In this document: positions 100-25,427 of the stretch, in pieces
How positions within the stretch are numbered: position 1 is the first letter of the stretch
How the letters are laid out: every line of letters starts with the position of its first letter
NCBI RefSeq assembly: GCF_004010195.1
Contig: NC_057717.1
Span: 105,719,927 to 105,745,425 of the forward strand
Reading direction: 5' to 3'
Origin: Chiloscyllium plagiosum
Taxonomy: Eukaryota
Length of the DNA stretch: 25,499 nt
Made by a program: the position numbers and the translations under genes
Notes under the pieces: model-generated
Seen by the model: only the letters and a program-made list of their open reading frames with translations
Database searches by the model: none
What the model was told of the DNA's origin: nothing

Positions 100-370
100 C
101 CACACACCAGGTTATAGTCCAACAGGTTTAATTGATGTGCTTCCAATTAAACCTATTGGGCTATAACTTGGTGTTGTGAGATTTTTAACCCAGTCCATCT
201 CCAAATCATGACTACTATCCACGCCAAGATAAGCACTCCACAACCACCTGATGACGGAGCAGCGCTCCAAAAGCCAGTGCTTCCAAATAAACCTGTTGGA
301 CTATAACCTGGTGTTGCGACATTTTTAACTTTGTATACCCCAGGCTAATACCACCACCTCCAAAATCATC
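100..370. mobile_element. Penelope-like element (PLE)-derived terminal repeat, family C: an inverted copy plus a tandem direct copy
   Basis: 104-134 and 144-174 are inverted repeats (28/31). 137-189 is directly repeated at 277-329. A hammerhead-like core lies at 248-279. Inverted plus partial-tandem termini are typical of PLE insertions. Confidence 0.7.
245..279 (+). ncRNA. Degenerate minimal hammerhead ribozyme motif (family C)
   Basis: CAC-CUGAUGA-C-GGAGC(AGC)GCUCC-AAAA-GCC-A-GUG. Stem II is a perfect 5 bp and stem I is CAC/GUG. G12>A and U16.1>C relative to the hammerhead consensus, so it is probably inactive. Confidence 0.65.
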
Positions 371-1104
371 ACACCAAGATAGTAAGTGACTGTTGGCTAT
401 TGGTTCAAAGTTAAGCACCAGCACCAAATTCCTCCACTGCACAGACACTTTGCTGTGAAAAATCACTGTGAAAAAGACTACTGTCACAAAGAGACACCAT
501 CACCGATTCCACTTCTCCTCCTATTTAATTGCAATGTCCCAGTAGAGTTCAGCTCATCCCCAGACAGACAGTTCAGGAGCTGGAGGACCGTCTTGATTCT
601 GTGACTGTGGCTTTGCAGCTGTCTCTCTCAATGATCCCATGCAGTCTTGGATTTAAATTGGTTCCCTGTCTGATCAGAGTCACAGCACCTCTAGCCATGT
701 GTAATTCTGCGAAAACTCCAGCTTTCACACATACTTCACTGACAGCTCAACCTCCCCACCACCTATCTTCATCTCACAACTTCTTGTGTGCTGTCTTGAA
801 TAATTCTGAAACTTGCTCCAACTAAACACTGGGAGAAACATCACAATTGTCTTCAGGTGCCAGTCATGTCATTCCCATGCCCAGGCAAGACTTCCAGCTC
901 TGCTGAGACTGTTCATCCCCATTCAATCACCTTGAGCAACCTCAGCCATATTTCTTGCCAAAGGCTCAATTCTTCTGATGCTGGTGCTGACAACCTTGCG
1001 ATTGTCTATTCACCATCATCTCCAGCTTGGCCCAGACTGCAGGTTATAGGCAGCACAAAGTTCAGCTTCCTCTTTACACTCATCCTTTTGGGCCCGACAA
1101 GCTC

Positions 1105-1402
1105 CTGATCTCCTGATTCCCCATTCCTCAACTTTACAATTCCATCCTCAACTTAAACATTCCTAAGTCACTTCACCATTTCATTTTTGCAACTTCTGGA
1201 AGCCCTACAGACTTCCTTCAAATGCTTCCTTCCTCTATCTCTGGCCACTAATAAATCTTCCTCACGTGGTTTCAGTCACTTTGACCCCAATCTCGAAAAT
1301 GGCTCCTCTAAACCCATTAACAACCATTTTTGGTAAATACGTTCAGCTCAGTTGGAGTATTGAGGAACATTTTGCTACATTAGCTATGCTCCATTAAATT
1401 GC
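1105..1402 (+). mobile_element. Highly decayed L2-like LINE 3' end
   Basis: Pyrimidine-rich tract ending in gaggaacattttgctacattagctatgctccattaaattg, resembling the L2/DeuSINE-type tail (gggacgttttactacgttaaaggcgctatataaatg, from memory). Confidence 0.35.
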
Positions 1403-2851
1403 TGTAACCCAGTTACAGAACAGGTGTACTTGCGATGGTCTGATCGAACCCTCATGACTACATTCTGGCCCTTAAAAGATGAAAAATCAACATTACCTGG
1501 AGAACCTTCCAGAGGAGCCCTTCACTGTACAAGGTTACAGCAGTTATGTGGATTAAAACTGTCAAATGAGCCTTCAACACTGGCCACTCAACGTCCTACT
1601 TCCCTTCCAGCCATTATCTCTCAGCACCAGGCCCTGAAATGTGCACACTGGCTTGAGCACCACATAACCCACCAGTTTTACTGCTCACAGGTTTTTGTTT
1701 ATTGTGAAAACATTAAAGCCAGAAGTCAAAATAGAGAAGTTGTGGGGAAACACACAGCACCACTGAGATGGAAAGATCAGCAGCGTCATCAGGGTGTGCA
1801 GAGCAGTCAGCAAAGGGTAAGGCAGTCCAGAGGCAATCTCTGTGGGTGAGCAATGAAATGTGACTAACATAGCCTTTTTTGGTTCTGGTCTCCAAAGTCT
1901 AGTGCACTAATCTAACTTCTGAACAAACCACAGAGCGTGCAAATCTGTTTAACACTATAAATGCCAATGAGGTGGCCTGTTATCTTGTTTGAGAAAATTT
2001 ACGGTGAGGTAATGTTAATACGTCCTCATCAAGATTTTGCTGGTTTTGAAAACGTAAAAATCATACTGAATGAATCATGAAGCAGTATCATGGTTTACAT
2101 TTTGCGAAGTGATGGTGGAGGAGTGGGAATTGCCAGGGGTCCCCCAGTGATTCACTGGACACAAAGCTCTCTTATCTTTCAAGGTCCCCAACACATCGTT
2201 ACATGCACAGTTCCCAACAGATCACCATCAGGTTTGATTTTATTCCCCCAACTGCAGGGATGCTGATGGCAATCACAGAAATCCTCTCAAGACCAAAGCA
2301 GACCATAAGACACATGAGCAGAATTAGGCCATTCAGTCCATCTAGTCTGCTCCCCATTTGATCATAGTATGTTTCTCAACCCCAGACTCCAGCCTTCTCC
2401 CTTAACCTCTGACCCCCTTTCTAATCAAGAACCTCTCTCGGTCTTAAATCCACTCAATCACCTGGCCTTCACACATTTAAGTGGCAGAGTTCCACAGATT
2501 CACCATCCTCTGGCTCAAGAAATCCCTCTTTATCTCAGTTCTAAAAGACCACCTCTTCACTCTGAGGCTGTGACCCCAGGTTCTAGATTCTCCTACTGGT
2601 GGAAACATCTTCCCCATGTCCACTCTGTCCAGGTCTCTCAGTATTCTCAGAGTTTCCATAAGATCCACCCCCCCCCCCCATCCATCTTCCTCAACTGTCA
2701 AGTGCAAACCCAGAGACCTCAACTGCTCCTCAAACCCTTCATTCCTGGGATCATACCCGCTGTGGACCCTCCAAAGCCAGCACATCCATCCTTAGATACG
2801 AGGCCCAAAATGTTTCACAATATTCCAAATACCATCTGACGAGGGCCATAT

Positions 2852-3040
2852 GTAATTGAAGTGTGGTGCTAGAAAAGCAGAGCCGGTCAGGCAACATCCG
2901 AGGAGCAGGAGAGTTTACACTTCAAGCATGACCTCTTCATCTCAACACATCAATTCTGCTGCTCCTCAGATGCTGCCTGACCGGCTGAGTTTTTCCAGTA
3001 CCACACTTCCGACTCTGATCTCCAGCCCTCACTTTTTCCC
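2852..3040. mobile_element. Palindromic PLE-derived miniature element (family A)
   Basis: Inverted arms at ~2859-2916 and ~2952-3008 (aagtgtggtgc...ggtcaggca / tgcctgacc...ccacactt). Flanked by a 9/10 direct repeat, agggccatat (2842-2851) and agggccctat (3041-3050), a candidate TSD. Confidence 0.8.
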
Positions 3041-3063
3041 AGGGCCCTATACAGCCTCAGGAG

Positions 3064-3506
3064 TAGAACATAGAACAATACAGGCCCTTCAGCCCTCCAT
3101 ATTGCACCAACCTGTGAAACCAAACTAAAGTCACTCTAATCTACATTATTCTATTATCATCCATATGTTCATCCAATGGCCACCGGGGAGGGCTCAGTGG
3201 TTAGCACTGCTGTCTCTCAGCACCAGGGACCCCGGGTGACTGTCTGTGTGCAGTTTGCACATTCTGAGTCTGCGTGGGTTTCCTCTGGGTGCTCCGGTTT
3301 CCTCCGACAATCCAAAGATGTGCTTGCCAGGTGAATTGGCCTTGCTAAGTTGCCCACAGTTTTCGGTGCGTTAATAAGGGGTAAATATAAGATACGGGAA
3401 TGGGTGGGTTACTCTTTGGACAGTCGGTGTGGACTTGTTGGGCCGAAGGGCCCGTTTCCACGCTGTAGGGAATCTAAATCAAATTTAAATGCCCTTAAAG
3501 ATGGGC
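3064..3506 (-). mobile_element. Short CR1 3'-end fragment interrupted by a SINE
   Basis: Begins with a tagaacatagaaca-type terminal microsatellite and ggcccttcagccc. The sequence atccaatggcca|tttaaatgcccttaaag is split by the SINE. Confidence 0.65.
3183..3483 (+). mobile_element. HE1-like tRNA-derived V-SINE (elasmobranch)
   Basis: A-box-like ggctcagtggttagc (3191-3205), V-domain-like core (tctgcgtgggtttcctctgggtgctccggtttcctcc), and a 3' tail gggccgaagggcccgtttccacgctgta matching CR1 3' ends in this window. Confidence 0.88.
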
Positions 3507-3875
3507 AATGTTAGCATTCACGAGAATGCTACTGTTGTATTCTTGCTCTCGTGAATGCTAACATTACATTTAGAGTCATGGAATCAGAGTCAAATAGCAC
3601 AGAATCAGATCTTTTGGTCCTACCACACCACACAAACCATAATTCCAAACAAAAGTAATCCCACATGCCTGCATTTGACCCAAATCCCTCCAAACATTTC
3701 TTATTCTTGTACTTATCCAAATGTCTTTTACAAGTTGTAACTGTACCTGCACCCACCACTTCCTCTGGAAGTGCATTCCACACATGGACCACACGCCATG
3801 TAAAAACATTACCCCATGTCCTTACTACACATTTCTCCTCTCACCTTAAAAATATGCCTAGTTTGGAAATCCCCT

Positions 3876-4422
3876 ACACTGTACAGGGCATTGGTGAGGC
3901 CTCTCTGGAATACCATGCCCAGTTCTAGGAAGGATATTATCAAGTTGGAAAGGGTTTATAAGAGATTTACCAGATGTTACTGGGTATGGAAGCTCTGAAT
4001 TATAAAGGAAGGTTGGATAAGCTGGGAACTTTTTCCATTGGAGCGGAGGAGGTTGAGGAATGACCTGATACAAGTTTATAAGATAATGAGAGGTATAGTT
4101 AAGATGAATGGCAGGTGTCTTTTCCCTAAGGTGGGGGATTTCAAGACTGGGGGCACATTAAGGTAGGATGAGAGGAGAAAGATTTAAAAAGACGCAACAG
4201 GCAAATTGTTTACACAGAGGGTGGTTCATGTGTGGATTGAACTTCCTGAGGAAGTGGTTGATGTGGGTACAATTACAATGTTTAAAAGACATTTAGTTAA
4301 GTACATGAATAGAAAAGTTTGGAGGGATATGGGCCAGCAGCAGGCAGGTGGGACTAGTTTAGTTTAGGAACATGGTCAGCATGGACTGGGTTGACTGTTT
4401 CTGTGCTGTATAACTATGACTC
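3876..4422 (+). mobile_element. 5'-truncated CR1 LINE inserted in the opposite orientation
   Basis: LYRALVRPL...RKDIIKLERVYKRFTR, followed by a CR1 3' UTR ending ctgtgctgtataactatgactc. Confidence 0.85.
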
Positions 4423-4894
4423 AAGAGACAACATCTGCCATTCACCTTACCACGATTTTATAAACCTCTAAGATCACCCTTCAATGTCCTACACTCAAAT
4501 GAAAGTAGTCCTACCAGTCCAGCCTCTCCTCATAACCCAAACTCTCCATTCTGAAACCCTCCCCAGTTTAATATCATTCTGATAATAGGGTGACCAGAAC
4601 TAAATACAGTACTCCAAAAGAGGCCTCACCAACATCCTGTACAACGTCAACATGACGTCCCAACTCCTATACTCAAAGGTCTGAGCAATGAAGGCAAGAG
4701 TGGTAAATGCCTTCTCAACCACCCTGTCTATATGTGACACAGATGTCAAAAAATGTCAAAGTACATGACCCAAAGCTCTACTTTTAAGTGGATAAGTCCT
4801 GCCCTGGTTTGTTTTACCAAAACGCGATGCCTTGCATTTAACCAAATTAAACTCCACCTGCCACTCTTCAGCCCATTGAACCAACTGATCAAGA

Positions 4895-6715
4895 TAGAGT
4901 CTAGAGATGTACAGCATGAAAACAGACCCTTCGGTCCAACCCGTCCTTGCCGACCAGACATCCCAACCCAATCTCGTCCCACCTGCCAGCATCCAGCCCA
5001 TATCCCTCCAAACCCTTCCTACTCATATACCCATCCAAATGCCTCTTAAATGTTGCAATTGTACCAACCTCCACCACATCCTCTGGCAGCTCATTCCATA
5101 CACGTACCACCCTCTGCGTGAAAACGTTGCCCCTTCGGTCTCTTTTATATCTTTCCCCTCTCACCCTAAACCTATGCTCTCTAGTTCTGGATTCCCCAAC
5201 CCCAGGGAAAAGACTTTGCCTGTTTATTGTATCCATGCTCCTCATAATTTTGTAAACCTCGATAAGGTCACCCCTCAGTCTCCGACGCTCCAGGGAAAAC
5301 AGCCCCAGCCTGTTCAGCCTCTCCCTGTAGCTCAAACTCTCCAACCCTGGCAACATCCTTGTAAATCATTTCTGAACCCTTCTGTAGGAGACCAGAATTG
5401 CATGCAATATTCCAACAGTGGACTAACCAATGTCCTGTACAGCCGCAACATGACCTCCCAACTCCTGTACTCAATACTCTTACCAATAAAGGAAAGCATA
5501 ACAAATGCCATCTTCACTATCCTATCTACCTGTGACTCCTATTTCAAGGAGCTATGAACCTGCACTCCAAGGTCTCTGTTCAGCAACACTCCCTAGGACC
5601 TTACCATTAAGTGTATAAGTCCTGCTAAGATTTGCTTTCCCAAAATGCAGCACCTCGCATTTATCTGAATTAAACTCCATCTGCCACTTNNNNNNNNNNN
5701 NNNNNNNNNNNNNNNNNNNNNNNNNNNNNNNNNNNNNNNNNNNNNNNNNNNNNNNNNNNNNNNNNNNNNNNNNNNNNNNNNNNNNNNNNNNNNNNNNNNN
5801 NNNNNNNNNNNNNNNNNNNNNNNNNNNNNNNNNNNNNNNNNNNNNNNNNNNNNNNNNNNNNNNNNNNNNNNNNNNNNNNNNNNNNNNNNNNNNNNNNNNN
5901 NNNNNNNNNNNNNNNNNNNNNNNNNNNNNNNNNNNNNNNNNNNNNNNNNNNNNNNNNNNNNNNNNNNNNNNNNNNNNNNNNNNNNNNNNNNNNNNNNNNN
6001 NNNNNNNNNNNNNNNNNNNNNNNNNNNNNNNNNNNNNNNNNNNNNNNNNNNNNNNNNNNNNNNNNNNNNNNNNNNNNNNNNNGATTTATCCACCTTTAAC
6101 TGTTTCAAGGCATCCAGCACTTCCTCCTCTGTAATCTGGACATTTTGCAAGATGTCACCATCTATTTCCCTACAGTCTATATCTTCCATATCCTTTTTCA
6201 CAGTAAATATTGATGCAAAATATTCATTTTGTATCTCCCCCATTTTCTGTGCCTCCACACAAAGGCCGCCTTGCTGATCTTTCAGGGGTCCTATTCTCTC
6301 CTTAGTTACCCTTTTGTCCTTAATATATTTGTAAAACCTCTTTGGATTCTCCTTAATTCTACTTGCCAAAGCTATGTCCCTGTTTTGCCCTCCTAATTTC
6401 CCTCTTAAGTATACTCCTACTTTCTTTATACTCTAAGGATTCACTCGATCTCTCCTGTCTGTACCGGACATATGCTTCCTTCTTTTTCTTAACCAAACGC
6501 TCAATTTCTTTAGTCATCCAGCATTCCCTATACCTACCAGCCTTCCCTTTCATCCTGACAGGAGCATACTTTCTTTGGATTCTTGTTATCTCATTTCTGA
6601 AGGCTTCCCATTTTCCAACCTGCAAACATCTGCCTTCAATCAGCTTTTGAAAGTTCTTGTCTAATACCGTCAAAATTTCTCCAATTTAGTACTTCAACGT
6701 TTCGATCTGGTCTAT
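4895..6715 (-). mobile_element. Young CR1/HER1-type LINE, 5'-truncated ORF2, spanning the assembly gap
   Basis: Long, little-decayed ORF pieces: LPGLESLSYRERLNRLGLFSLERRRLRGDLIEVYKIMR...VRVWNELP, and ASRIKENPKRFYKYIKDKRVTKERIGPLKD. Highly similar to 16103-16803 on the opposite strand. Confidence 0.92.
5690..6082. other. Assembly gap (393 N)
   Basis: Run of n characters. Confidence 1.
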
Positions 6716-7451
6716 CCTGTTTGTATTCTTAAATAACTTTCTCCACAGTCCACTATACCACCAATTTTGGTGTCATCCACAAACTACATACTACTCATCT
6801 AAATCATTTATATCAATGACAAACCAAAGTAGATCCAGCACTGAACCCTGTGGAACAACATTCCAGCTGCAAACAAACTATGTTAATGACAGGAGTTCTA
6901 GTACGGGATTCTTGAGTCCCTTTGTGCTTCCGACTTCTGAAGCCTTCCCCCATCGAGAAAATAGTCCATGCTCCTTTCTTCCAATCACAGTGCATCCCCT
7001 CACACTACTCCACATTGTTTTCCATCTGCCACTGTGCCCATTCTCCTAGCCTGTCCAAGTTCTTCTACAGCCTCCAAACCTTCTCAACACTACCTGCCCC
7101 TCCACTTTGACTCATGTGTGAAATTAGCAACAACGCCCTCATCCTTTGGCTGGATTGTTCATGTATAATGAAAATAGTTGTGATCCCAACACTGAACCTT
7201 GCAGAACTCCACAAGCCACTGGCTGCCATGCTGATAAAGACCCCTTTATCCCTGCTCTCTGCCAGTCAGCCAATTCTCTATCCATGCCAATACCTTGCCC
7301 AAAACTATGGGCTCTTATTGAGTGGCACACATCAGAATATATCATGCTCACTGATTCTCTTTTGCCTAATTTGGTCATTATCTCTGCAAAGAATTGTAAT
7401 AGATTTGTTAGGCATAACCTCGCCTTGATCAATGAGCCCTATTTTCCCATG

Positions 7452-7675
7452 TGAAATAACTCCACACAGGCCAGTGGCCCGTCAACAAATCACCCCTGGT
7501 TTACACACGAACAGTCCTTGACTTTCATACTGCCTCTTCAGAGCCAGCTACTGGAGTGGCAGAATCTGACGCTCCCTTTTTATCTGTCAGCCAGGACTCC
7601 CCGATTGGGACTGTTAACCTAGTCAAAAACTCATTCTGTAAGATCCACCTGGCTGATCCTGTTACAACCACAACA
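7452..7675 (-). mobile_element. Solo LTR (probably Gypsy-type)
   Basis: A 224-bp insert with TG...CA ends (tgaaataac...cacaaca) that interrupts colinear CR1 sequence (gccctattttcccatg | cacttccaag). Decayed 5-bp TSD ccatg/caata. Resembles a shark LTR as I recall it. Confidence 0.7.
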
Positions 7676-9093
7676 CAATACACTTCCAAGTATTCCACAG
7701 TTTCACCTTTAATAATCCTCACCAGCAATCAAGGTCAGGCTAACCACCTTCTGCCCCCTTCCCTTATTAAACAGGGGTGTTACGTTAATCATTTTCCAGT
7801 CCTCTAGAATCCTCCCTGACTCCAACAATTCCTGAAAAATCACCAGTGCCTTTGTGATCTCAACTATCTCCTTCAGAACTCTAGCCTCTCCCTTATCTCT
7901 TTTCTATCTTCAAAACCAAACTCTTCTAATCTTCCTTCATAAAACAGCTTGCTGTCATATTTCATCTTGCCCATTAGTGATTTTGTAGTTATCCGCTGTT
8001 GGTTTTTAAAGGTTTCCCAAACCCATTGATCTTCACACATCATACACTTTTTCCTTGTCCCTGGCTTCCTTTGTCAGCTATGGTTGCCTCATCCTCCCCC
8101 TTTGCATGTTTCTTCTTCCTTGGGATGGATTTCTGCTCTGCCACCCGAATTACCCCCAGAAACCCCTGCTATTGCTGCTCCACCATCTTGCCTATTAAGC
8201 AATTCTGGCCAGCTCCTCGCTCATGTCTTTGTAGTTACCTTTCCTCAATTGTAAAACTGTTACATCTGATTCCAGTTTTCTCCCTCAAACTACAGGGTGA
8301 ACTCTATCATATCATGGCCTTCTTTCACCTTACACTCCCTGACCAAGTCTGCCTCATTACAATCACCAAATCGAGAATTCCTGTTCTTTCGTGGACTATA
8401 CTATAAGTAGCTCTTAAAAAAAAAGAAACATCTTGTAGACATCCCATGAATTCTTTTTCTTAGGATCTGCTTATCAACTTGATTTTCCCAGTTCACCCGC
8501 ATATTGAGGCCCCCATAATTATTCTTGTGTTGCCTTTGATACATGCCTTTTTTTACGTATTTCCTTTCCCACAGCCTGAGGCCCGTCCATAATCTCATCA
8601 TGCCTTTTTCCCTTTGTGTTCCTCAACTCCACCCACATCGATTCTAAGCCTCCTGACCTTATATTAATTATTATTGATTCCATTTCATTTCTTACAACAA
8701 CCCAACTCCTCTGCCGGTCCGCCGTCCTTTTGATAGGATGCTTACCTTTGGATAATTTACTTGACAGTCCTGATCCCCTGACAGCCACAACATCGCAATG
8801 GCCAATTTCAACTGACCTACAAGCTCATTAAACTTGTTTTATATACTGTGCATATTTAAATACAACACTCTGGGGCCTGTGTTGAGCAATCCCCTTCTCA
8901 GCTGTCCCCATATCTGTTGTTTCTGAAGGGAGATTCCCGATTCTCTCCATACTTCACCCTGTAATGTGTTCTGGAAAGCTCTCTCTCCTGAGCTCTTTTC
9001 TATAATATTCTAGGAAATTGAACCTGCCACTCCCACACCTACTTAGTTTAAACCTTGATTTACTGCTGTAGTTAAGCAATTTGCCAGGACTGT

Positions 9094-9170
9094 GCTCAGC
9101 AAGTCTGACAACGTCTGGGAAGAGAAATCAAAGTTCATGTTTCAGGTTGAGTGACCCTTCTTCAGAACTA
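9094..9170 (-). mobile_element. PLE terminal fragment (family B) with a hammerhead motif
   Basis: Minus strand reads AGUU-CUGAAGA-A-GGGUC(ACUC)AACCU-GAAAC-AUG-AACU. Stem I is AGUU/AACU, but the cleavage triplet is mutated to AUG. Homologous to 10467-10560. Confidence 0.75.
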
Positions 9171-10144: not shown

Positions 10145-10592
10145 TCATTTCAGGGTCTGAACTTTGCCCATGTCCCAGCCCCCTACCCCACACACCAGGC
10201 CTTCTTATCACAGTCTGCCACTACATACTACCTATTGTTAGCCACTGAAGTCTCCATTAACAACTATTCACCTGAAGCAGACAAGCAGGAGGCTGGAACA
10301 GCAGCAAGCCAGGCAGCATCAGGTGGTGGTGAAGTCACCACCACTCCTGTGCCTCCAACTATTCTTTTTTCTCTCTCTCTCTCTGGGTTCTATCCCCAGC
10401 AACATTTAGCCCTTCCTGCTGCCCCCCCCATCTTCTGCATATAAACTAACATTTTCCTGGCAAATTATCAGATCTGAGGAAGGGTCACCGGTCCCGAAAC
10501 GTTTACTCTGATTGTTCTTTACAGATGCAGCCAGACCTGCTGAGCTTTCCCAGCAACTTCTGTTTCTGATTTACAGCATCTACAGTTCTTAC
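10145..10592 (+). mobile_element. PLE 3' terminal region (family B), including a small inverted family-A-like fragment at ~10272-10337
   Basis: C/T-rich tract, then the hammerhead core, then the tail acagatgcagccagacctgctgagctttcccagca...cagcatctacagttctt. Confidence 0.72.
10467..10512 (+). ncRNA. Minimal type-I hammerhead ribozyme motif (family B) with an intact catalytic core
   Basis: AUCAGAU-CUGAGGA(10474-10480)-A-GGGUC(ACCG)GUCCC-GAAAC-GUU-UACUCUGAU. Stem III is the palindrome ACGU, the triplet is GUU, and distal stem I is AUCAG/CUGAU. The two proximal stem I pairs are mismatched. Confidence 0.75.
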
Positions 10593-11579
10593 ATTGGACT
10601 GTCTGTCCACTTCACTGAGCTAACTTCATTTATCGGACCTATGAAGTCCACTTGGGTATCTTTTAAAAATACTTAATCCCTCAAGTTCTCATACTCAAAG
10701 ATTTGTTCCAATGAAACTGGCTATTCTGGTTAAAAGCAGCAATGTTTTCAAGTGACACTCCCTGCACGCTCTCAGATTTGAAACTTGATGGCGCTTATTC
10801 ATTTGATGAGCTTGCGAATCAAGTTGCTCAAGGCAGTGTCTGTCTCAAACATTCCTGACAGTTTTACCTCACAGTCGAACGTCCCTTATATTCCTTTCCA
10901 CTTTTTGCTATCCAACTTTCAACTTGCTGCTGAAAAGAACAGGAATTTAGTTAGCCCATTTCTCAAGCTGAGCAGGCCTTGAAGTGCTCAACAGCCAATT
11001 CAGAGGTAGTCTATGAAACAACCAAGACAATGTGACAAGAGTACATAGACATCAAACTACTTTCAATACTTTTCTGTGGAAATGACAAAGTGCAGTCACT
11101 GTTCTTTTACAGACCAAAGCAGGAGCCAAGTTACAGATGGCAATAAGCTCCAGAACCAATTCATCTGTTTTGTTGACGGTTGCACAGGAAATAATTGTTA
11201 GCCAAGCTATCAAAGAAGATTTCTTGTTTAATTCCAACAGGGCCCTGGACCAGACTGCTGTTGAGCATTGAGTTCAATGGGCAGGGAAACCAGAGAAGGT
11301 ATTGTCCATGCTCCCACTTCTCACGTAGCATTTTTGATCTTGAATTTTGGTAAAATTATCAACAATGTAGTACAGCCCAATCCCCAAATCCACCCAAGAT
11401 CCATGCATGTATTTTCCACTTTGATAATGCTCATCAGGAGGAATCTTGGCCAATTGCCTCTTGAAATCTGGCACCCAAAGCAACAGTTGTGCCACAGCTG
11501 GGATCTGAAAAACAAGTTGAAATTTGGGAGTTTTTGGTCTGTAGGGCTCAATTGTTAACATTCATGTTCAAGTAAGGTG

Positions 11580-13257: not shown

Positions 13258-13955
13258 GTTTGACCACAACGTGAACAATTTTGGTTGCCTTAGCAAGGGA
13301 AAGATACAGTGGCATAGAGAGTAATCGAGACAAGGTTCACCTAGTTGATCCTACGTATGCAAGCATTTCCTTAAGAGTAAAGGTCAAAACAGGTTGGTTT
13401 GGTATTATTGGTGGAGTTTAGATTGACAGGGTTGATGCAGAGATGCACTTCCCAATGTGGAAGATTCTCTGATCAGAAGGCATAGTCTCACAGTAAGGGG
13501 TCACTTGTTTAAGACAAAAGAGGTCAAATTTCTTGTCTCAGACAAGATAATTTCTTTATCACAGAGCAGTCAAAGCTGAGACAATCAAAGTATTCAAGGC
13601 TCAGAAACAGCAATTTTTAAACATCCAGTGAATCCAGGGATATCAAGTAAATTGAGCGATGAGCAGATTGTTACTATTACCTCCTACCTTTGCCCACCTC
13701 TCACCATCCCATCTACCTTTCCCCTAGCCCCCCACAGCTGTCTTTATTTTTCAGCCCCCTCCTGCTCTCCAATCCTGATGGAGGGTTATGCCCGAAACAT
13801 CAACTCTCTTGCTCCTCAGATGCTGCCTGACCTACTGTGCCTTTCCACTGCCACACGGATTATCAGATTAGCCATGATCTTACGGAATGGTGGAACAAGC
13901 CATGATCTTACGGAATGGGATGACTGGCCTACTTCTGTTCATGGTTGTTAAATGA
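13258..13955 (+). mobile_element. Decayed CR1 3' fragment interrupted by a PLE terminus
   Basis: aaggttcacctagttgatcc, gacagggttgatgcagag and ggcatagtctcacagtaagggg. The 3' UTR resumes at ~13858 (tcagattagccatgatct...tggcctacttctgttc). Confidence 0.7.
13665..13857 (+). mobile_element. PLE 3' terminus (family A) with a degenerate hammerhead at 13771-13806
   Basis: AAUC-CUGAUGG-A-GGG(UUAUG)CCC-GAAAC-AUC, followed by the family A tail gctcctcagatgctgcctgacct...ccacac. Confidence 0.78.
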
Positions 13956-15691: not shown

Positions 15692-16804
15692 ACTCTGTTT
15701 AAGAAGGGTGGTATGGAAAAGGCAGTGAACTATAGACCAGTGAGCCTGACGTCAGTGGTGGGCATGTTTTGGAGGGAATCCTGAGGGACAGGATATACAT
15801 GTATTTGGAAAGACAAGGACTGATTCGGGATAGTTAACATGGCTTTGTGCGTGGGAAATCATGTCTCTCAAACTTGATTGAGTTTTTTGAAGAAGTAACA
15901 AAGATGATTGATGAGGGCAGAGCAGTAGATGTGATCTATATGGACTTCAGTAAGGTGTTCGACAAGGTTCCCCATGGGAGACTGATTAGCAAGGTTAGAT
16001 CTCATGGAATACAGGGAGAACTAGCCATTTGGATACAGAACTGGCTCAAAGGTAGAAGACAGAGGATGGTGGTGGAGGGATGTTTTTCAGACTGGAGGCC
16101 TGACTTAATGGTAAGGTCCTAGGGAGTGTTGCTGAACAAAGGGACCTTGGAGTGCAGGTTCATAGGTCCTTGAAAGTGGAGTCGCAGGTAGACAGGATAG
16201 TGAAGGTGGCATTTGGTATGCTTTCCTTTATTGGTCAGAGTATTGAGTACAGGACGTTGGTTAGGCCACTGTTGGAATATTGCGTGCAATTCTGGTCTCC
16301 TTCCTATTGGAATGATGTTGTGAAACTTGAAAGGGTTCAGAAAAGATTTACAAGGATGTTTGAGCTATAGGGAGAGGCTGAACAGGCTGGGGCTGTTTTC
16401 CCTGGAGCATCAGAGGCTGAGGGTGACCTTGTAGAGGTTTACAAAATTATGAGAGGCATGGATAGGGTAAATAGGCAAAGTCTCTTCCCTGAGGTGGGGG
16501 AGTCCAGAACTAGAGGGCATAGGTTTAGGGTGTGAGGGGAAAGATATAAAAGGGACCTAAGGGGAAACATTTTCACACAGAGGGTGGAAGTGTATGAAAT
16601 GAGCTGCCAGAGGAAGTGGAGGCGGCTGGTACAATTGCAACATTTAAAAAGTCGTCTGGATGGGCATACGAAAAGGAAGAGTTAGGAGGGATATGGGCCG
16701 GGTGCTGGCAGGTGGGAACTAGATTGGGTTGGGATATCTGGTCGGCATGGTCGGGTTGGACCGAAGGGTCTGTTTCCATGCTGTACATCTCTACGACTCT
16801 ATGA
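15692..16804 (+). mobile_element. Young CR1/HER1-type LINE, RT region to 3' end, with internal deletions
   Basis: LFKKG...NYRPVSLTS; GKSCLSNLIEFFEEVTK...VDVIYMDFSKVFDKVPHGRL; LVRPLLEYCVQFWSP; terminal ctctacgactctatga. The QGS/ADD catalytic segment is missing at ~16102. Confidence 0.93.
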
Positions 16805-17029: not shown

Positions 17030-17400
17030 GCATAAGGTGATACAATAAGTGTAAACTAACCCAAAATATAAGAATTATAATGAAAACTGAGGAGATTTAA
17101 CTGATATAATTGAGATAAGGAAATAGTTGACATTAAACAGAAATGTTATAACCATCTTCAGAGCACAAGATAAAGAAACATGAGAAATAGCAGGGAATAA
17201 ACATGGTGAGTGTGAGGAACTTAATGGAAAAGTATTGAACAAGAATGCTGTTGAAATCTCCTGAACCAGGTAGACTCTATTCTCAAGTTCTGAAAAGGCT
17301 GGCTGCAGAGTTTATGTCTGCGATCTTCCAAAGTTTCCTTCAGCGTGGAACAGTCACACTGGATTCAGAAAAAAATCACCCCACTTTTCAAGAAAGAAGT
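17030..17400 (+). mobile_element. Old CR1 ORF2 fragment (pre-RT region)
   Basis: KSPEPGRLYSQVLKRLAAE..IFQS resembles the CR1 motif KSPGPDGxHPRVLKELAxE..IFQxS, followed by caccccacttttcaagaaag (TPLFKK). Confidence 0.7.
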
Positions 17401-17929
17401 AGTTTCCTTAATTCTGGTGTTTCAGGTCAATTCAGAGATCATCCATTGTCACTCAGGTATCTCACTGTTGTCCAACTATTCACACACAAGTAATTCTGCA
17501 GTAAGCCTGACACTTTGACCAACTGCTCCATGCCCAGCAGCATCACCACAACATGAAGTCACAACAGCTCTGGAAATAACCAGCAAAACTCTCCCTCTCA
17601 CATCCACCAAGCTCTTTAAAAAACAATTCCTCGAGAAAATGTCAAACCAACATATTCTTGCAGTACAGTTTTCACTTCTTGCTATACACAAATCGACAGT
17701 CTAAAACATAAGCAGCTCAGGCTCTAGCATCATTCACACCTCTCAGGCCACTGCCTACCACAGTTTAGGCTAAAGCAGTGCTATCCCCAAACACTACCAC
17801 CATTACCCAGAGAAACGTTTCCATTTCTCAACGTCACTAGGCTACATCCTTGGGATTCCCACAATGGAAACTATGAACCCAGGAGGAGTTCAGCAGATTA
17901 TAAAGGGCCATCACTCTTGGATAAAAGCA

Positions 17930-18005
17930 CATAGGATCATCAACCTGCAACATTAACTTGGTTTCTCTGCCTGACCTGCTCAACATTGCCTGCATTTTTT
18001 GTTCT
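17930..18005 (+). mobile_element. Very decayed PLE family B terminal fragment
   Basis: acctgcaacattaacttggtttctctgcctgacctgctcaacattgcctgcatttttt resembles 10493-10560. Confidence 0.5.
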
Positions 18006-19334
18006 AATCCCATCTCGGCAGTGCTGGGGTTGGGTAATTAATACAACATTGCTGTGTTGCAACCAAAAAAAGCTGCAGAGAATGGGTTTTAGCAAACGAA
18101 GTCCAGCTAAATTCCCCTCTGGGCATGATACAGCAGCTCAAACAGCCCCCCAGTCAATTAACTCCACCTCTTAGCCCCCGCTCCATTTACTCAAAGCAAA
18201 ACAATCTTTACCTGCTCTGCCTCAATCGAGACACCAGTGCTTCGGGTAGCCAAAGCTGTCACAAATGTATACAGCTCCCTTTGTTATCAACAATCCTCCC
18301 ATCCTGGGTGAGGAGTTTCAAAAATATGACATCATCTTGCAGAATCTTCGATCAAATCAAACTAATCGTTTCTCAAATCCTTTAGCAATGAAAGGCAGTG
18401 AGTCAGAGTCTCTCCCACACTGAAACAAGACTCCCCCTCTGCCTCCTCAGTCACTGCTGCATCGACAAATATCTGAATCCAACACAGTCCAGGCAGCTGA
18501 CAGACGTGAACCAACCAGTTCAGCAAGATTCAGGGAGAATTGAAATTCACTTTCACTGAATTTACACAAACAAAACCTTGCACAGAATTCATTGCAACTG
18601 CCAGCAATCCTTGTTACTCCCAAATTGGAATTTAATAAAACAGATGGAATTCTGGAATTTAAAAAATGCAAGAATGTACAGAAAATTCCTCACCCCGTAA
18701 TACATTTCCAAGAATCATTTATCTCAATTCCCAGATTCAGGCTGAAGCCTTATCCAACTTTCCTTTTTAAAACCTCGCTGCTAAGATTTCTTCTCTCTCT
18801 CTCTCCTTACACAGAGGATACTTTGCGTGGAGATACACAGAATATTTGCAAGTCAAAACTTCAACGTGTGGCGGGTACAAAAGTGTAAACATATTCTGTT
18901 CATAATCTCACTCCAGGGTTTAAGGCTGATGTCTGTCAACAAGGCATACTCAGTAACAATGTACAAACCAAATGTCAACTAACCGCCAACTCAGACTCGT
19001 CTTCTCCACTCAAAAGAATTCAAACAAACTGAACCAATCTGAGCACAATGACCCTTTTGGTTCAATCCTATTAGGAGTCTGATGAAATGCTCTTGGAGCA
19101 CCACTGCTGCAGAGTACTGGGGTATTCCATACCCTCAAGGACTGCTGCTGATTTTAAGTGCATCTTCCGTGGCCTTACAATTGAACAAACATTAAAGAAG
19201 CAGTCGTTTAGCTTCCAGAGTGATAGGTTTGTAAAACTTAGCAGAGAAATCTGCCAAACATCAATATTCCCTCAACAATTATTGTTTAAAACTGCCGACA
19301 ATGTAAGATGTTTATAGAGGAGTCACATGACTAG

Positions 19335-19525
19335 CAACTGGAAGATACAAAATATTTGGTACAAATCAAGTCAGAGGTGATAGAAGGAGAACTTATTCCT
19401 GAGTGAGGCTCTGGGATGTGTTTTGTTAAGGAGCAGTGGCAGCAGATTCAGGACTAAGTTTCAAGTGTCATCAAATGCATAATAAAGGAAATATTTTCAA
19501 GACAATTTGGAAAGAGCAGCTGTCA
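19335..19525 (+). mobile_element. Very old CR1 3' remnant
   Basis: Weak resemblance to CR1 ORF2 end and 3' UTR (agaaggagaacttattcctgagtgagg...gcagtggcagcagattca...ggaaagagcag). Confidence 0.35.
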
Positions 19526-20214
19526 GTGATTCTCAAGTCTGACACTGCACAGCCACAGCCAACATTCTGTGCTGCTAAATTCTATCAGGGCCAACAAGAT
19601 GGCCAAAAGGATCAGGAAATCCCACATTTGTATCAACTCAGTACATTGCCATGGAGTCGATGTTTTGTTCCAGACAGGAGAGTTTTCAGAAACCAACACC
19701 ACAATCAGCCAATGGTCAGAGCCTCCCACCACACTGCCACAACTAGTGTGAACAAAACTGGAATAACAAAAACAGAATTATTGTGACAAAGGAAGATTGG
19801 TTTGTGGACAGGAAGTGCACATCCTGTGCAAGACTTTAAATATATTGGTCAAACAGATTGCTCACAATGCATGATATAAAAACACTTACCAGAAATTAAG
19901 ACTCTTTAGTATGGCAAGGTGCCTATGCAATCATTTTAACTCATACATGAGAAAACATTAATGAATAACACAATAGCATCATCCCAGCGCCAAATTCTCA
20001 AAGGAATCAATCGAAAATTGAACTCTCTGGATTAAGTTCTCTGTTCAAAGTGAGAAACCCACATCCAAGGAAGCAGCATGAAGCTAACCTCTGCATGTTT
20101 CTCACAAATCCCAGACTTGCTGATATGCTCAAAATACTAAACTGGAACTAGGTCGACCAGAATGGGTTGGTAGGGAGGGAGAGAGAAAGAAAACTGTGAT
20201 GGGCCTTTCTTCAG

Positions 20215-21265
20215 AGAGGTCAGGCAGCATCAGAGGATCATAAGAGGTAATGTTTCAGACATAAGGAAGGCTTTCATCAGGAAATCAGCAGACCGGGGTT
20301 GTGGGGGGGGGGCACGGTTTGGCACACCAACCTTGACATCGCTAAGGCCCTGCCAACTCTCAAATATTCTACTCCTGAAAAGGATCCACACACAAACACT
20401 TGTTCTCCAGCTTATCAGACATCAAGGAACATAAGTACATCAAACTGTCACTTACTTAGCTCCAAACCCAGGATTCTCCAACCAATCCAGACACTTCCCC
20501 CCGGGAATATATATCGGGTATGAGCAGGTAGGGAAAGAGTTGACAATGCCCCAGCCTCCACAAAACCGCTACAGCCACCACTATGACCCTCACCACTAAA
20601 CTGACCGAGACCACCATTGACCATACTGCCTCCTCAGTCACCATGAGTCCTGCTGCCGAAACCTCGACGAGCACAGCCCGTTACATCACTTTCACCCCGT
20701 GATTGCTGCCCCGACACCACTTCCAACCCCACTGATGTCACTCTCAGAATACCACCATGCCACTTCCAGATGTGGCCCAATGTGCCACTTCCAGATGTGA
20801 CGTGTCGCGACATCAAACTTTCCTTCCACTGCCTCTGCCCCCATGCTTGCTTTTTCAACGTGACTCCCACCTACCTTCTGTGGACCACCTCTCCTGCCTC
20901 TAACATACACCATTCTCTTGGATGCTCTGTCCTGGGCTCTTACCCGTCCTTAACCTCTTCATCTCCAACTGCTGCTGTGGCATTGACTGCCTCAACCTGT
21001 CCACCCCTCACCCACTCCAACCTATCACCCTCGAAAAGTGCAGCCCTCCAGTCCCTCCGCTCCAACCCAACCTCACCATTACATCAGCGGACAAGGGGAG
21101 AGCACATGGTAGTTTGGCACATTGACCTCTACATCGCTGCAGCCACACATTCCTGATTAAGGACTTATGCCCAAAATGTTGACCCTCCTGCCTGACCTGC
21201 AGTACTTTTCCAGTGCCACACTTTTCAACTCTGACTCTCCAGCATCTGCAGTCCTCACTTTCTCT
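20215..21265 (+). mobile_element. Internally deleted Penelope-like element with inverted hammerhead-bearing termini
   Basis: Frameshifted PLE pre-RT coding remnant (GLLPVLNLFISNC / THSNLSPSKSAALQSLRSNP / NLTITSADKG / VVWHIDLYIA, ~20930-21145) fused directly to a family A terminus (21151-21265). An inverted family A terminus lies at 20215-20281, followed by a second KSAD...VWHTNLDIAKA remnant. Confidence 0.78.
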
Positions 21266-21399
21266 CATTTCTCCAGACAGCAAGACAAAGAATAATCAAC
21301 TCAATCCAAAGCAACTTGGTGAACCACAAAGATATTGTTCAAGACCTTGAACTCAGCTACTGTCCCACTGTTCCAGTTCAAGCAGATGTAAGGTTGAAA

Positions 21400-21595
21400 G
21401 TAGGATCCCAAGAAAGGGAAGACCATTCAACCCCTCAAGCTTGTCCCAGCCTCAACTCACGTCTGCCAGACTCTAACGCTCTTGCTTATCAATCTTTCTT
21501 CATCGGACAATCCTTCATCCCAGTAATCAACTCACTGAATCTTCTGACTGCTGCCAAAGCATAACCTGCTTAAGGAAGGACACCAAAACTGTATA
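21400..21595 (-). mobile_element. Heavily deleted CR1 3' remnant
   Basis: gaccattcaacccctcaagcttgtcc and cttcatcccagtaatcaactcactgaatctt...caccaaaactgta match the minus-strand CR1 3' pattern seen at 2330 and 23220. Confidence 0.5.
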
Positions 21596-23204
21596 ATAAA
21601 AGTAATTGCACACAGAAAAGGGTAGATATCTACAATCCACACAAAGAACAGTGACTAGGTGCAATAATTTTTTTTTTAAGGAAGTAATAAGGTTGGGCTG
21701 TGGTGTTGGGTAAACGAGAAAATGAATGCAGGATCTGCTGCAAAGGATTGAATTCTGACTGTCAATGGGCAGACTCAGTTTAAACAATTTTTACAGCTAC
21801 TCAGTCTTCTTCATGGAGCATGTCACAGGATAAAAGGAACTCTCAGTGCCTCACTCACACAAATGCTAACTTTATGAACATACTGTGGCAGATCTCAGCC
21901 TTGCTATGACCTTGAAGTACACTCAGTAGTCACAACCAGCCGTGGGCTCACCTCCTGAACCTAAGGTTACTCAGGTCAATGGCAGCATTTCAACTCCTCT
22001 CAGCATTCTGAGACAATGAAACAAAGGGGTTTCCTTTCGAGTCCGACTGCTTTATTTGTACATCAACTTTTGCCATCGAAGAAATCTTGTCTTTGTTTCG
22101 GAGACAAAGGCCCACTGTTCCTATCGGCTACCTATTTCTCACTCAAAAACGCTCTGTGCATGAACGTCATCACATCTGTGGTGCGCTGAGCTCATTCATG
22201 GTTTCTGATTTTACCACAAATGCACATTTTGCGCTGGGCGAAAAACACAGTACAACTTGAAACATGGCTTTAAGGATCTCATCGACCTATCGGATAATAT
22301 TTTTGTAAAGAATTAGGGCAGTGTCCTCAGCACTTGGCATCAACCTCCTCAGAATGACCCATTTGATAGTCTTTGTACCAATAAAACGGGCCCACAAAGA
22401 AATCTGCTTCCTCTCTACCTATTCAAGGCTTGAAACTCAAGACCTCCAAAACCTCAAACCAAACCTCCAAATCATCCTTTAATTTTCCAGTCATCGGTAT
22501 TTCTTGATTGTCCTCATCAGTACCAAGGTTGAAAAGAGAAGGAATATCAACATTTTCCTCAGCTTCTCAACTGATGGTATGCCCAGGTAATAATGATGGA
22601 AGACTTTTCCATTGTCCACCTCAAGTGATAATATTTCACCACTTTTCCTTCCAAGTTGCAGTCAGCTGCAAGGCAATTCAATAAAACAAGGAACCAGTGT
22701 TCAAATATTTCTGTTACAATAACCAAAAACTCACCCAGTGTCTAATAACCGATTCCCAAAAATACAGGTACTGGAACCTCTTTGAAGAACTATTTCATCC
22801 AGTTTTTCTTCTCAGCTGGTGTGCCTCTGCTTGAAGGTTGGTGTTTGATTCACAGCAGTCTTTCTATACCTTCCAATCGCATGCCATCCTTTCCATTTAC
22901 CAAGAACATCCTTCAATTTCTAAGCCATCAAGCATGGATACTCTCTTCCTTACTCTGATTCTTTGAAATCTCCCCACCATGACGTCTTTTACACGTCTAG
23001 TTCATCTTAAAAATGCCCTACCAAGACCCTCTGCATTTTTATGACTAGGCCAACAGGTTTTTGTTTATTCTTTCTCTACGACACTATTACTTTCTCTGTG
23101 CTGATTGATTCCAATCTCCTCCAAACCCACATTTCGAAACTAGCCTGATCACAAAATTACAGAGAATTTGTCCCCTCTAACTTCAGATTCTTGGAGTAAC
23201 CTGA

Positions 23205-23772
23205 GAGACAGAGGCAGAAGGCAGCCATTCAGCCCATCAAGTCTGGTTCACCATGCATTAAGACTAAGGCTGCTGTCTCAGTCCTCAACTCAACTTTTTG
23301 CCTTTTCCCCTTAATCCTTGATTCCCTTACTGATGACAAATCTGTCTTGTCTCAGTCTTGACTATAGTAAATGACTCAGCCTCAACAGCCCTTTGTGCTA
23401 AAGAATTCTACAGATTCACTACCCGAGAAGAAATTCCTCCTCATCTCTCTTAAAATGGACAATCCCTTACTGAGATTATGCCCAGTGATCCAAGACTCTC
23501 CCACAAGGGAGAAACAACCTCTGTATCTGCCTTGTCAAGCCACAAAGATCTCTCTTTTATTAAGGTCTCCTCTCAATTTTCTGAACCCCATTAAGCACAA
23601 GCCCAATTTACTCAACCTCAAAAAACAAAACGTTCCATACCTGGAGATAAAACCAAAGAACATTCTTCAGCCTGCTTCAAACGCCAGTATATTTGTTCTC
23701 AGTTAAGGGAACTACAACTGCTCACACAGTATTCCAGCTGTGCACTGACCAGTGTTTATCCAGTTTCAACAA
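23205..23772 (-). mobile_element. CR1 LINE 3' fragment
   Basis: gccattcagcccatcaagtctg...aagaattctacagattcactacc...gaagaaattcctcctcatctc...caactgctcacacagtattccag, homologous to 2320-2840. Confidence 0.82.
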
Positions 23773-23782
23773 GACAGTGCAG

Positions 23783-23804
23783 GAGAGAGAGAGAGAGAGA
23801 GAGA
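23783..23804 (+). repeat. (GA)11 microsatellite
   Basis: Directly visible; lies at the start of the putative 5' UTR of the downstream CR1. Confidence 0.95.
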
Positions 23805-24147
23805 ACCTGCACAGTTATTGCCTTTGCTGTTTGAATTTGTGTATCACTGGACATCAGAGTGCATCCGGGAAAATTAACAAACACTGAAATTCACAACTAA
23901 TCTTGGAGGAACTGTTGGGCGAAGTTCACAGCACAGAATCAGATAAGTTAATTGTTGTTTTAAGTGTGTCCAAGAGAAAGGCTGCAGTAGTGAGTACAGT
24001 GGATTTGTTCTTGATTATATGTTTTTGGAGATAAGTCTTTTGATTAAACTTAAAATGTAAGTCATAGCTATTAATTTAACCTGGGACAGTGTTTGTCGAG
24101 GAATAAGAAAGTTATTTTCTGGGTCTGTAGATTGTGAAGGAGCAAAA

Positions 24148-25070
24148 ATGGCCTTTGCAGTGATATGTACTTCTTGTCAGATGTGGGAGTTTAAAAAGAG
24201 TTTAAGGGTTACTGTGGATTATATCTACCATCTTATCAGATCGAGTGGATTAGTTGAAGAGACAGATAGAAGCGATGAGAAAGTAGGGGGTGATGGATTC
24301 TCAGGGGAACGTAGCACGAACAGCTAAGTTTCTGGTATTGAGATTGGTTCTAATGCAACAAGGGGTACGTCAGCTTCTAAGAGATCAATTGTGTTAGGGG
24401 ATTCTGTAGTCAGAGGTACAGACGGACATTTCTGTGGCCAGCAGAGAAAAAGCAGACTGGTGTGTTCTCTGCCTGGTGCTAGGAGAAAGTGAGGACTGCA
24501 GATGCTGGAGATCAGAGCTGAAAATGTGTTGCTGGAAAAGCGCAGGTCAGGCAGCATCCAAGGAGCAGGAGAATCCACGTTTCGGGCATAAGCCCTTCTT
24601 CAGGCTCATGCCCAAAATGTCGATTCTCCTGCTCCTTGGATGCTGCCTGACCTGCTGCCTGACCTGATGTCTCAGAGAGGGTGCTGAATATTCTGACGGG
24701 GGAGAGGGGCCAGCAGGAGGTCATTGTCCACATTGGAACCAACGACACTGAAAGGGAAAAGATTGAGATTTTGAAGGGAGATTACAGAGAGTTCGGCAGA
24801 AATTTAAAAAGGAAGTCCTCAAGGGTAGTAATATCTGGATTACTCCCAGTGATACAAGCTCGTGAGGGCAGGAATAGGAGGATAGAGCAGATGAATGCAT
24901 GGCTGAGGAGCTGGTGTATGGGAGAAGGATTCACATTTTTGGATCATTGGAATCTCTTTTGGGGTAGAAGTGACCTGTACAAGAAGGACGGATTGCACCC
25001 AAATTGGAAGGGGACTAATATACTGGCAGGGAAATTTGCTAGAACTGCTTGGGAGGATTTAAACTGGTAA
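24148..25070 (+). pseudogene. CR1 ORF1 remnant (N-terminal CxxC plus SGNH/GDSL esterase domain), disrupted
   Basis: ATG at 24148 gives MAFAVICTSCQMWE. Block I IVLGDS (GDS at 24397-24405) and LPGAR precede the insertion; VIVHIGTND (block III) and DGLHPN (block V) follow it. Stop at 25068-25070. Confidence 0.88.
24482..24666. mobile_element. Palindromic PLE-derived miniature element (family A) inserted into CR1 ORF1
   Basis: Arms 24543-24594 and 24603-24654 (48/52 complementary, 8-nt loop). Minus-strand hammerhead CUGAAGA-A-GGGC(UUAU)GCCC-GAAAC-GUG at ~24603-24575. Tandem 12-mer ctgcctgacctg at the right end. Confidence 0.85.
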
Positions 25071-25364: not shown

Positions 25365-25427
25365 ATGGATGTACACAGGATGTACACAGATCTTTGAAAG
25401 TTGCCACCCAGGTAAATAGTGCGGTGA

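Follow-up and report, generated by a model that had tools for sequence, protein, structure and literature searches.

Penelope-type minimal hammerhead motifs are dispersed in very high copy number, largely as decayed insertions, in the genome of Chiloscyllium plagiosum

Introduction

Minimal hammerhead ribozymes (min-HHRs) of Penelope-like elements (PLEs) are the closest described relatives of a set of motifs found in a 25,499-base stretch of the Chiloscyllium plagiosum genome (contig NC_057717.1, positions 105,719,927 to 105,745,425; hereafter the window). As defined by Cervera and de la Pena 2014 (PMC4209133), the min-HHRs of PLEs lack helix III, carry a nucleotide between A9 and 10.1 and have a G10.1-C11.1 pair and a palindromic 15.2-16.2 sequence. 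The same paper describes many co-varying consensus families per genome, with ~4,000 motifs in coelacanth and ~9,000 in Xenopus, and a genome-wide spread in fishes, coelacanth and amphibians that was thus published by 2014. Lunse, Weinberg and Breaker 2017 is also cited for metazoan PLE min-HHRs in PMC6765202.

PLE insertions themselves have known hallmarks. An inverted 5' partner copy, 5' truncation and a 30-40-bp tail are named by Craig et al. 2021 (PMC8557442), and a mechanistic account of these hallmarks was given by Frangieh et al. 2024 (PMC11167929) for the Poseidon PLE of Anolis carolinensis (PAc). Related to the pseudo-long terminal repeats (pLTRs) of PLEs are the non-LTR retrozymes, non-autonomous elements with type-I hammerheads (Cervera and de la Pena 2020; Li, Clavereau and Pollet 2026); the largest count given in the 2026 preprint is 14,255, in axolotl.

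A sequence-only reading of the window proposed at least seven dispersed hammerhead loci falling into three co-varying families of the PLE type, in very high copy number. Here, genome-wide searches, family alignments, covariation counts and fold predictions are combined to examine these motifs. Judged by their sequence, the motifs belong to the PLE-type min-HHR class, since each sequence feature of the published definition is present in genomic copies.

Results

Hammerhead families and their layout

Three window copies were used as queries against the genome (3.56 Gb in 101,977 contigs), and 30 genomic loci were collected per family. In intact copies, the parts follow in the order CUGANGA, one bulged nucleotide, stem II, GAA, a palindromic ACGU or AGCU, and H. 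The family assignments hold on these copies, with stem II reading GGGC/GCCC in family A, GGGUC/GACCC in family B and GGAGC/GCUCC in family C, stem I reading AGUU/AACU in B and CAC/GUG in C, and stem III being ACGU or AGCU. Family B (window copies at 10474 and 9165) is not a foldback and consists of AGUU, CUGAGGA, A, GGGUC-ACCG-GACCC, GAA, ACGU, U and AACU. Family C (248) consists of CAC, CUGAUGA, A, GGAGC-AGC-GCUCC, GAA, AGCU, A and GUG. Family A (24603) is a unit of ~210 bp, whose best genomic matches are 94-96% identical to the window copy; it forms a near-perfect foldback with two ~83-nt arms and a non-palindromic tail of 34 nt, and most of the CUGAAGA box lies in its apical loop.

The AGCU of family C had been inferred from a window copy reading AGCC, and the alignment bears it out: position 16.1 is T in 19/30 copies (GCT) and C in 11/30 (GCC). 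G12 of this family, which lies in a CpG, is G in 11/30 copies and A in 19/30. AGCU is no new variant, because the published definition asks only for a palindromic 15.2-16.2.

To these families a fourth, D, is added from the flanks of the loci, with a stem II of 7 bp (GUUACCU/AGGUAAU) and a CCA/UGG stem I, so that stem II measures 4-7 bp across families. Two family D copies, at L037:1310-1361 (+) and L057:3077-3128 (-), carry an AC-rich region just 3' of the hammerhead, which recalls the AC-rich stem-loop that is the reverse-transcription start in the anole PLE (Frangieh et al. 2024, PMC11167929).

Covariation of stems I and II

The sample for covariation comprised 45 core-only sites, taken with no stem requirement, which gave 29 distinct sequences. 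A MAFFT alignment of 30 intact motifs put the 3' halves out of register between families with unlike stem II lengths; pairs were therefore counted by a script anchored on the core boxes rather than with a covariance model. Stems I and II co-vary between families. Over the first four pairs of stem II, 106 of 116 cells are standard pairs, compared with a mean of 87.2 and a maximum of 97 when the 3' strands were re-dealt (500 trials); in slid register, the standard pairs number 59/116, 70/116 and 54/87. Over the first three pairs of stem I, 67 of 87 cells are standard (re-deals: mean 46.2, maximum 58, 500 trials). At pair 10.3-11.3, 14 sequences have G-C and 9 have A-U. The proposal that the stems differ between families yet keep pairing is thus supported, and the intact copies of the families retain both the core and the pairing, the absence of which had been named in advance as grounds for giving the proposal up.

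Abundance in the genome

A core-only pattern without any stem requirement, CTGANGANGN{10,22}CGAAACGTH, was counted genome-wide against the reversed pattern as control. The ACGU core pattern occurs at 65,378 + 65,577 = 130,955 sites, compared with 30 + 31 = 61 for the control, and the AGCU core pattern at 15,763 + 15,576 = 31,339 sites, compared with 8 + 3 = 11. Together, intact cores number ~162,000, or one per 22 kb, in line with the very high copy number that had been proposed. In addition, 283,487 bases of loci were scanned with a strict descriptor requiring, in order, the box, at most one bulged nucleotide, a 4-8-bp stem II, GAA, a palindromic A..U tetramer and H17. It matched 34 times at seed copies and 11 times in flanking sequence (45 motifs in all), whereas each of 20 dinucleotide shuffles gave no match. 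All 11 hits outside seed copies have the A9/10.1 bulge, though the scan accepted motifs without it too.

Family profiles built with hmmbuild were scanned over 250,088 bases outside the seed copies, where 72 insertions of families A, B and C were found. Fifty-nine of them cover the hammerhead segment (~1 per 4.2 kb) and 10 have an intact core, so that about one-sixth of hammerhead-bearing copies are still intact. The density of the window, read as one motif per 3-4 kb, is therefore that of the genome on average.

It might be supposed that a pattern so short and degenerate matches repeat-rich DNA by chance. The CTGANGA heptamer by itself is indeed not enriched in the window (30 occurrences, with 20.8 +/- 5.2 expected; 6/100 shuffles reach 30), and no curated Rfam model matches. 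The genome-wide contrasts between core patterns and controls, together with the empty shuffles, already refute this explanation, and we give it practically no credence. At the gathering score and E <= 10, the Rfam hammerhead models match nothing in the window or in six intact-copy loci. This non-match counts against assigning the motifs to the hammerhead class, but it is expected, since the motifs lack helix III. The same scans returned sub-threshold matches to miRNA hairpins only, which are caused by foldbacks.

Link to Penelope-like elements

The 30 family B copies have a common 3' end and 5' ends lying anywhere from -41 to beyond -1,558, a pattern of 5' truncation. Upstream of the family B hammerhead, protein search and pairwise alignment revealed broken frames that align in order to an 893-aa protein (P0014), which carries RVT_1 at 382-570 and GIY-YIG at 801-884. 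The matches cover residues 358-422 (58%, E 5e-20), 488-643 (42%, E 4e-37) and 801-891 (36%, E 5e-15), and the best named homologue is an uncharacterised horn shark protein. The architecture of P0014, a reverse transcriptase followed by a C-terminal GIY-YIG domain, is that of endonuclease-bearing PLEs. The GIY-YIG match ends ~265 nt 5' of the hammerhead, and the element ends 135-150 nt 3' of it. On this alignment evidence, family B is the 3' end of a PLE, which agrees with the proposed PLE-type minimal type-I hammerhead with palindromic stem III and post-A9 bulge. The PLE terminal location is demonstrated for family B only; families A, C and D are tied to it by shared 3' sequence or by PLE-type insertion features.

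Such features include inverted 5' partner copies, which adjoin the units, and two 3' termini lying 30-35 nt apart, at profile positions 140-149 and 165-180 in family B and 95-104 and 130-136 in family C. The family A termini, at 170-184 and 205-210, are partly confounded by left arms read on the opposite strand. Of 30 family A copies, 18 had ends that could be placed, and 14 of these lie between exact target-site duplications of 4-14 bp.

Taken together, the loci are very probably neutral, decaying insertions of a PLE 3'-terminal module and its short derivatives. The module begins with a minimal type-I hammerhead without a stem III of its own, followed by ~100-150 nt leading to one of the two 3' termini, and the stretch between these termini corresponds to the PLE 'tail'. 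As published PLE work suggests, copies would be made by target-primed reverse transcription on nicked DNA, starting in the RNA just 3' of the hammerhead. According to the literature, reverse transcription would often stop short of the 5' end, and both DNA strands could prime it, yielding inverted pairs. In source transcripts, two hammerheads may pair via the ACGU or AGCU palindrome into a double hammerhead, which could cut 3' of H17, probably aided by the PLE protein, as described for related elements. The foldback subfamily represented by the 24603 copy appears to have spread as a unit despite an 85-bp hairpin predicted to exclude the ribozyme fold.

State and decay of the window copies

The window contains one run of 393 N at 5690-6082, which may be an assembly gap. 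The family units recognised in it are as follows.

100-134 (-) and 137-209 (+): two head-to-head family C fragments without hammerhead core (nhmmer; sequence).
236..367 (+): family C unit (nhmmer hC positions 2-132, E 2.7e-43; sequence; family alignment).
248-276 (+): the hammerhead relic of that unit (248), reading CTGATGA, C, GGAGC-AGC-GCTCC, AAA, AGCC, A; G12>A and U16.1>C, with stems I (CAC/GTG) and II intact.
2858..3039 (both strands): older, diverged A-like foldback (nhmmer hA, E 2.8e-34 and 1e-32; sequence).
9093..9169 (-): family B relic ending without a tail (nhmmer hB positions 39-115, E 1.8e-19; sequence).
10431..10595 (+): family B copy (nhmmer hB positions 1-170, E 9.2e-51; core-only pattern match).
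13770..13868 (+): A-type copy, right arm only and tail-less, stopping at the arm/tail boundary (nhmmer hA positions 83-174).
17933..18005 (+): B-like fragment with only the 3' half of a decayed hammerhead, not listed in the sequence-only reading (nhmmer hB positions 50-135, E 8.2e-5).
20217..20281 (-): old A-like relic (nhmmer hA positions 83-143; sequence).
21152..21264 (+): tailed A-like relic (nhmmer hA positions 83-207, E 8.5e-21).
24481..24659 (-): young foldback unit of family A (nhmmer hA positions 28-209, E 2.9e-68; genomic copies at other loci share 94-96% identity with it).
25427..25499 (-): tailed 3' part of an A-type copy, its hammerhead region lying beyond the window edge (nhmmer hA positions 137-209).

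All seven proposed loci are thus present, and only part of their proposed layout is. CTGANGA starts exactly at five of them, 248(+), 9165(-), 10474(+), 20280(-) and 24603(-), and the other two are one base off the box, 13775(+) reading CTGATGG and 21153(+) CTGATTA. The bulged nucleotide after A9 is present in all seven. The CUGANGA and GAAA boxes together with U16.1-H17 are complete at 10474 only, and the other six copies have 1-3 core lesions apiece, as called against the family alignments. The hammerhead at 10474-10503 (+) retains the core CTGAGGA, A, GGGTC-ACCG-GTCCC, GAA, ACGT, T, although one stem II pair is a U.U mismatch and stem I is weakened. The relic at 9165-9136 (-) has G16.2>A and U17>G, and its stem II is altered at two positions of the 3' strand. 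The older A-type copies at 13775, 20280 and 21153 consist of the right arm only by nhmmer: 13775-13801 (+) has A9>G, G16.2>A, 1.1 G>A and the loss of one stem II base, 20280-20249 (-) has an intact box with a decayed stem II and G16.2>A, and 21153-21180 (+) has G8>T, G12>A and C15.2>T. In the young copy at 24603-24576 (-), which sits at the hairpin apex, C17>G is found, and the foldback arm takes the place of the 5' strand of stem I. Lesions often fall in the two core CpGs (C11.1-G12 and C15.2-G16.2), as expected for methylated dead copies. Read against their families, the window copies are dead, decayed relics that do nothing themselves, and are not working ribozymes.

Several side observations concern these units. 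The right arm of the 100..209 pair starts within ~2 nt of the predicted cleavage position, which may be chance, such starts amounting to 2/55 of family C matches overall. In the 2858..3039 foldback, which is absent from the list of the sequence-only reading, the core box is reduced to a remnant near the centre, and a spurious sub-threshold miRNA-hairpin match was returned by the Rfam scan. A 12-nt unit, TGCTGCCTGACC, is repeated 2.2 times at 24641-24666 in the left arm of the 24603 copy, a duplication private to this copy (tandem repeat finder).

Comparison with retrozymes

An alternative is that the loci are non-LTR retrozymes, that is, tandem hammerhead repeats giving small circular RNAs. 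They share with retrozymes the non-autonomous state, type-I hammerheads and the relation to PLE pLTRs, and the preprint by Li, Clavereau and Pollet (2026) reports PLE-pLTR-related non-LTR retrozymes in the one chondrichthyan it sampled. Moreover, an identical pair of AGCU-type motifs, both on one strand and separated by 206 nt, occurs at 2619545-2619779 of contig C1 (genome G000) and may be a retrozyme-like tandem. In retrozymes, however, tandem arrays give circular RNAs, whereas the window insertions are dispersed single copies on both strands, with nearest neighbours opposed in direction (9165- / 10474+ and 20280- / 21153+). No head-to-tail hammerhead arrays were found in the window, its only tandem repeats being two small arrays of ~2 copies with other units. 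In addition, the copies have target-site duplications and variable 5' truncation. We consider the retrozyme explanation quite unlikely and prefer insertion of the PLE 3'-terminal module. The match list that yielded the AGCU-type pair also contains four minus/plus pairs standing head to head, only 9-20 nt apart.

Foldback derivatives

The full RNA of family A is predicted to fold into an 85-bp hairpin with a minimum free energy of -185.3 kcal/mol. When stem II and a single-stranded core were forced, the energy was -156.4 kcal/mol, a cost of 29 kcal/mol, and the cleavage site was still base-paired. According to these fold predictions, the 85-bp hairpin of the 24603 type would exclude the ribozyme fold. 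The junction of this foldback type is found at 480 genomic sites with at most one mismatch (control 0), and a second, symmetric junction with the full core in both arms at 2,052 sites (control 0). Variants common to foldback copies are confined to one arm, as with a 3-nt deletion of the right arm seen in four copies and not in the left arm. That foldbacks are made anew at each insertion was considered and set aside, as shared variants are not mirrored in the arms; this observation is not decisive, since two template RNAs could serve the two arms. The recurrence of the same junctions at 480 and 2,052 sites is the stronger argument for spread as a unit, and it seems that foldback units were amplified as wholes while lacking a hammerhead able to fold.

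The foldbacks at 24481-24659 and 2858-3039 could instead be miniature inverted-repeat transposable elements (MITEs) or small-RNA precursor genes, the likeness to a hammerhead at the apex being incidental. A near-perfect 85-bp hairpin with sub-threshold matches to Rfam miRNA-precursor models has the appearance of either, but every such match is far under its gathering score. Furthermore, non-foldback copies of A type and of family B share homology with the right arm, the hammerhead and the 34-nt non-palindromic tail, the target-site duplications vary from 4 to 14 bp instead of having a fixed length, and inverted 5' partners are known from PLEs (Craig et al. 2021, PMC8557442). An origin as MITEs or small-RNA genes is accordingly very unlikely, and the foldbacks are better read as derivatives of the PLE module. 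Many sub-threshold miRNA-precursor matches also occur at the foldback units L050:2062-2142, L004:1548-1657 and L076:2473-2593 (mir-3158: 54.7 bits, with a gathering score of 97).

As to distribution outside this genome, sequencing runs under five organism labels (coded A-E) hold at least half of the sampled words of the family A copy L004:1460-1720, and runs X1 (A), X2 (B) and X19 (D) contain copies of this L004 element at 92-99% likeness. Family A may be common to related species.

Other features of the window

An open frame of 135 aa at 24663-25070 (+), directly adjoining the family A foldback, matches GDSL/SGNH lipase-like families (Lipase_GDSL_2, E 2.3e-12). GDSL/SGNH-type esterase domains occur in ORF1 of some long interspersed nuclear elements (LINEs) of the CR1/L2 type, and the frame may be a LINE fragment. 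Pfam assigned no family to 15 of the window's 16 long open frames, no tRNA genes were found in the window, and the long stop-free frames spanning 5690-6082 are artefacts of the N run.

Discussion

Evidence for and against cleavage

Self-cleavage of dimers 3' of H17 finds its sole support here in the predicted topology of one natural family B copy, whose lowest-energy homodimer would be a double hammerhead with stem II formed in cis and stems I and III in trans (-20.7 kcal/mol, compared with 2 x -8.1 kcal/mol for the monomers). A number of results weigh against active PLE-type hammerheads. The predicted dimers of five other natural copies take other folds, and the strict min-HHR descriptor finds no intact motif in the window. 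In a poly(A) single-cell RNA run (X19), 97% of the 1,740 reads on a family A copy run into unlike flanks, so that the element shows up only within heterogeneous transcripts, and no read ends pile up on this copy, in a library poorly suited to such ends. Of 263 family matches, only 2 have their start no more than 3 nt from the predicted cleavage site (0/144, 0/64 and, for family C, 2/55). Activity of min-HHRs in vitro is low and seen only as dimers, according to Cervera and de la Pena 2014 (PMC4209133). As for the PLE affiliation, Pfam recognises nothing in eight degenerate family B frame pieces, and its GIY-YIG profile gives one weak hit only over the genome. Finally, the independent lineages number only ~4, copies inside a family being related, so the covariation is qualitative support and not of R-scape grade. 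A second RNA run (X20) gave no reads on that copy. Copies seem to begin preferentially just upstream of stem I, but this was set aside, since the homology between subfamilies starts at the same point and the cluster need not mark true ends.

These weak or negative signs of activity agree with the anole PLE, for which Frangieh et al. 2024 (PMC11167929) report that mainly unprocessed RNA serves as template. It is conceivable, though we hold it improbable, that PLE source genes retain the hammerhead-shaped module chiefly because of a non-catalytic function, such as recognition by the reverse transcriptase/endonuclease protein or positioning of the reverse-transcription start, with self-cleavage taking little or no part in template making. 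The scarcity of matches beginning at the cleavage site speaks for such a role, as do the foldback subfamilies, present at 480 and 2,052 sites although their hairpin excludes the ribozyme fold by prediction. In the anole PLE, moreover, catalytic hammerhead mutants have no effect on in-vitro insertion, and no RNA-seq reads end at the cut site (Frangieh et al. 2024, PMC11167929). However, C3, G5, A6, G8, A9, G12, A13, A14, U16.1 and H17 are all kept across four lineages with unlike stems, which is hard to explain without selection for catalysis, and the anole hammerhead cleaves once protein is added (Frangieh et al. 2024, PMC11167929). The two roles are also compatible with each other. Decaying insertions of a PLE module whose hammerhead may cut as a dimer in source transcripts are still the favoured explanation.

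Comparison with known Penelope systems

With the min-HHRs of the 2014 paper, the motifs share the type-I layout, the short stem I, compensatory families, the PLE-terminal location and mostly dispersed single copies. They differ in host, here Chiloscyllium plagiosum, in a stem II of 4-7 bp and in number, with ~162,000 intact-core sites here and ~4,000 and ~9,000 in that paper, where the descriptors differ. Likeness to PAc (PMC11167929) is found in the hammerhead lying shortly 5' of the internal reverse-transcription start, in two start sites that give an optional 30-40-bp tail, and in the cutting and extension of both DNA strands, which fits the inverted partner copies here. In contrast, the PAc hammerhead overlaps the start of the reading frame, whereas that of family B lies ~265 nt past GIY-YIG and no start codon is seen at stem II; nor was a clearly AT-rich target, as in PAc, seen in the 14 target-site duplications here. 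The PLE insertions described by Craig et al. 2021 (PMC8557442) likewise show strong 5' truncation, an adjoining inverted 5'-truncated copy, a 30-40-bp tail and a hammerhead in the pLTR. Unlike those, the inverted arrangements here are fixed as ~210-bp units, with the same junction copied hundreds to thousands of times.

The class, the dimer model, the PLE location and the massive spread in lower vertebrates are already in print. In the literature searched, no description of these motifs in sharks was found.

Significance

This study extends PLE minimal hammerheads to a cartilaginous-fish genome, at ~1 per 4 kb, and it illustrates that a real ribozyme class can be recognised from raw sequence alone. 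The scale is notable, with ~162,000 intact cores and naturally spread foldbacks predicted to exclude the fold. For genome annotation, the families account for a considerable part of the short repeats left unclassified and of hairpins falsely resembling miRNAs, and in such genomes the foldback units probably give rise to false miRNA calls.

A more far-reaching interpretation, which we offer tentatively and rate as doubtful, is that the module of hammerhead, reverse-transcription start and tail is a PLE parasite resembling short interspersed nuclear elements, in which source copies of at least four lineages conserve the fold, yet do not use it to make the template 5' end. If true, the hammerhead would have a conserved role other than self-processing, for example in protein-assisted recognition or a late step of the cycle, and the 85-bp foldbacks would be a possible small-RNA source. 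The repertoire may be the largest hammerhead repertoire yet counted, with ~1.6 x 10^5 intact cores and ~8 x 10^5 relics (extrapolated from 59 in 250 kb). In-vitro insertion not needing the hammerhead, these copies provide a large natural data set on the purpose of the hammerhead in the Penelope life cycle.

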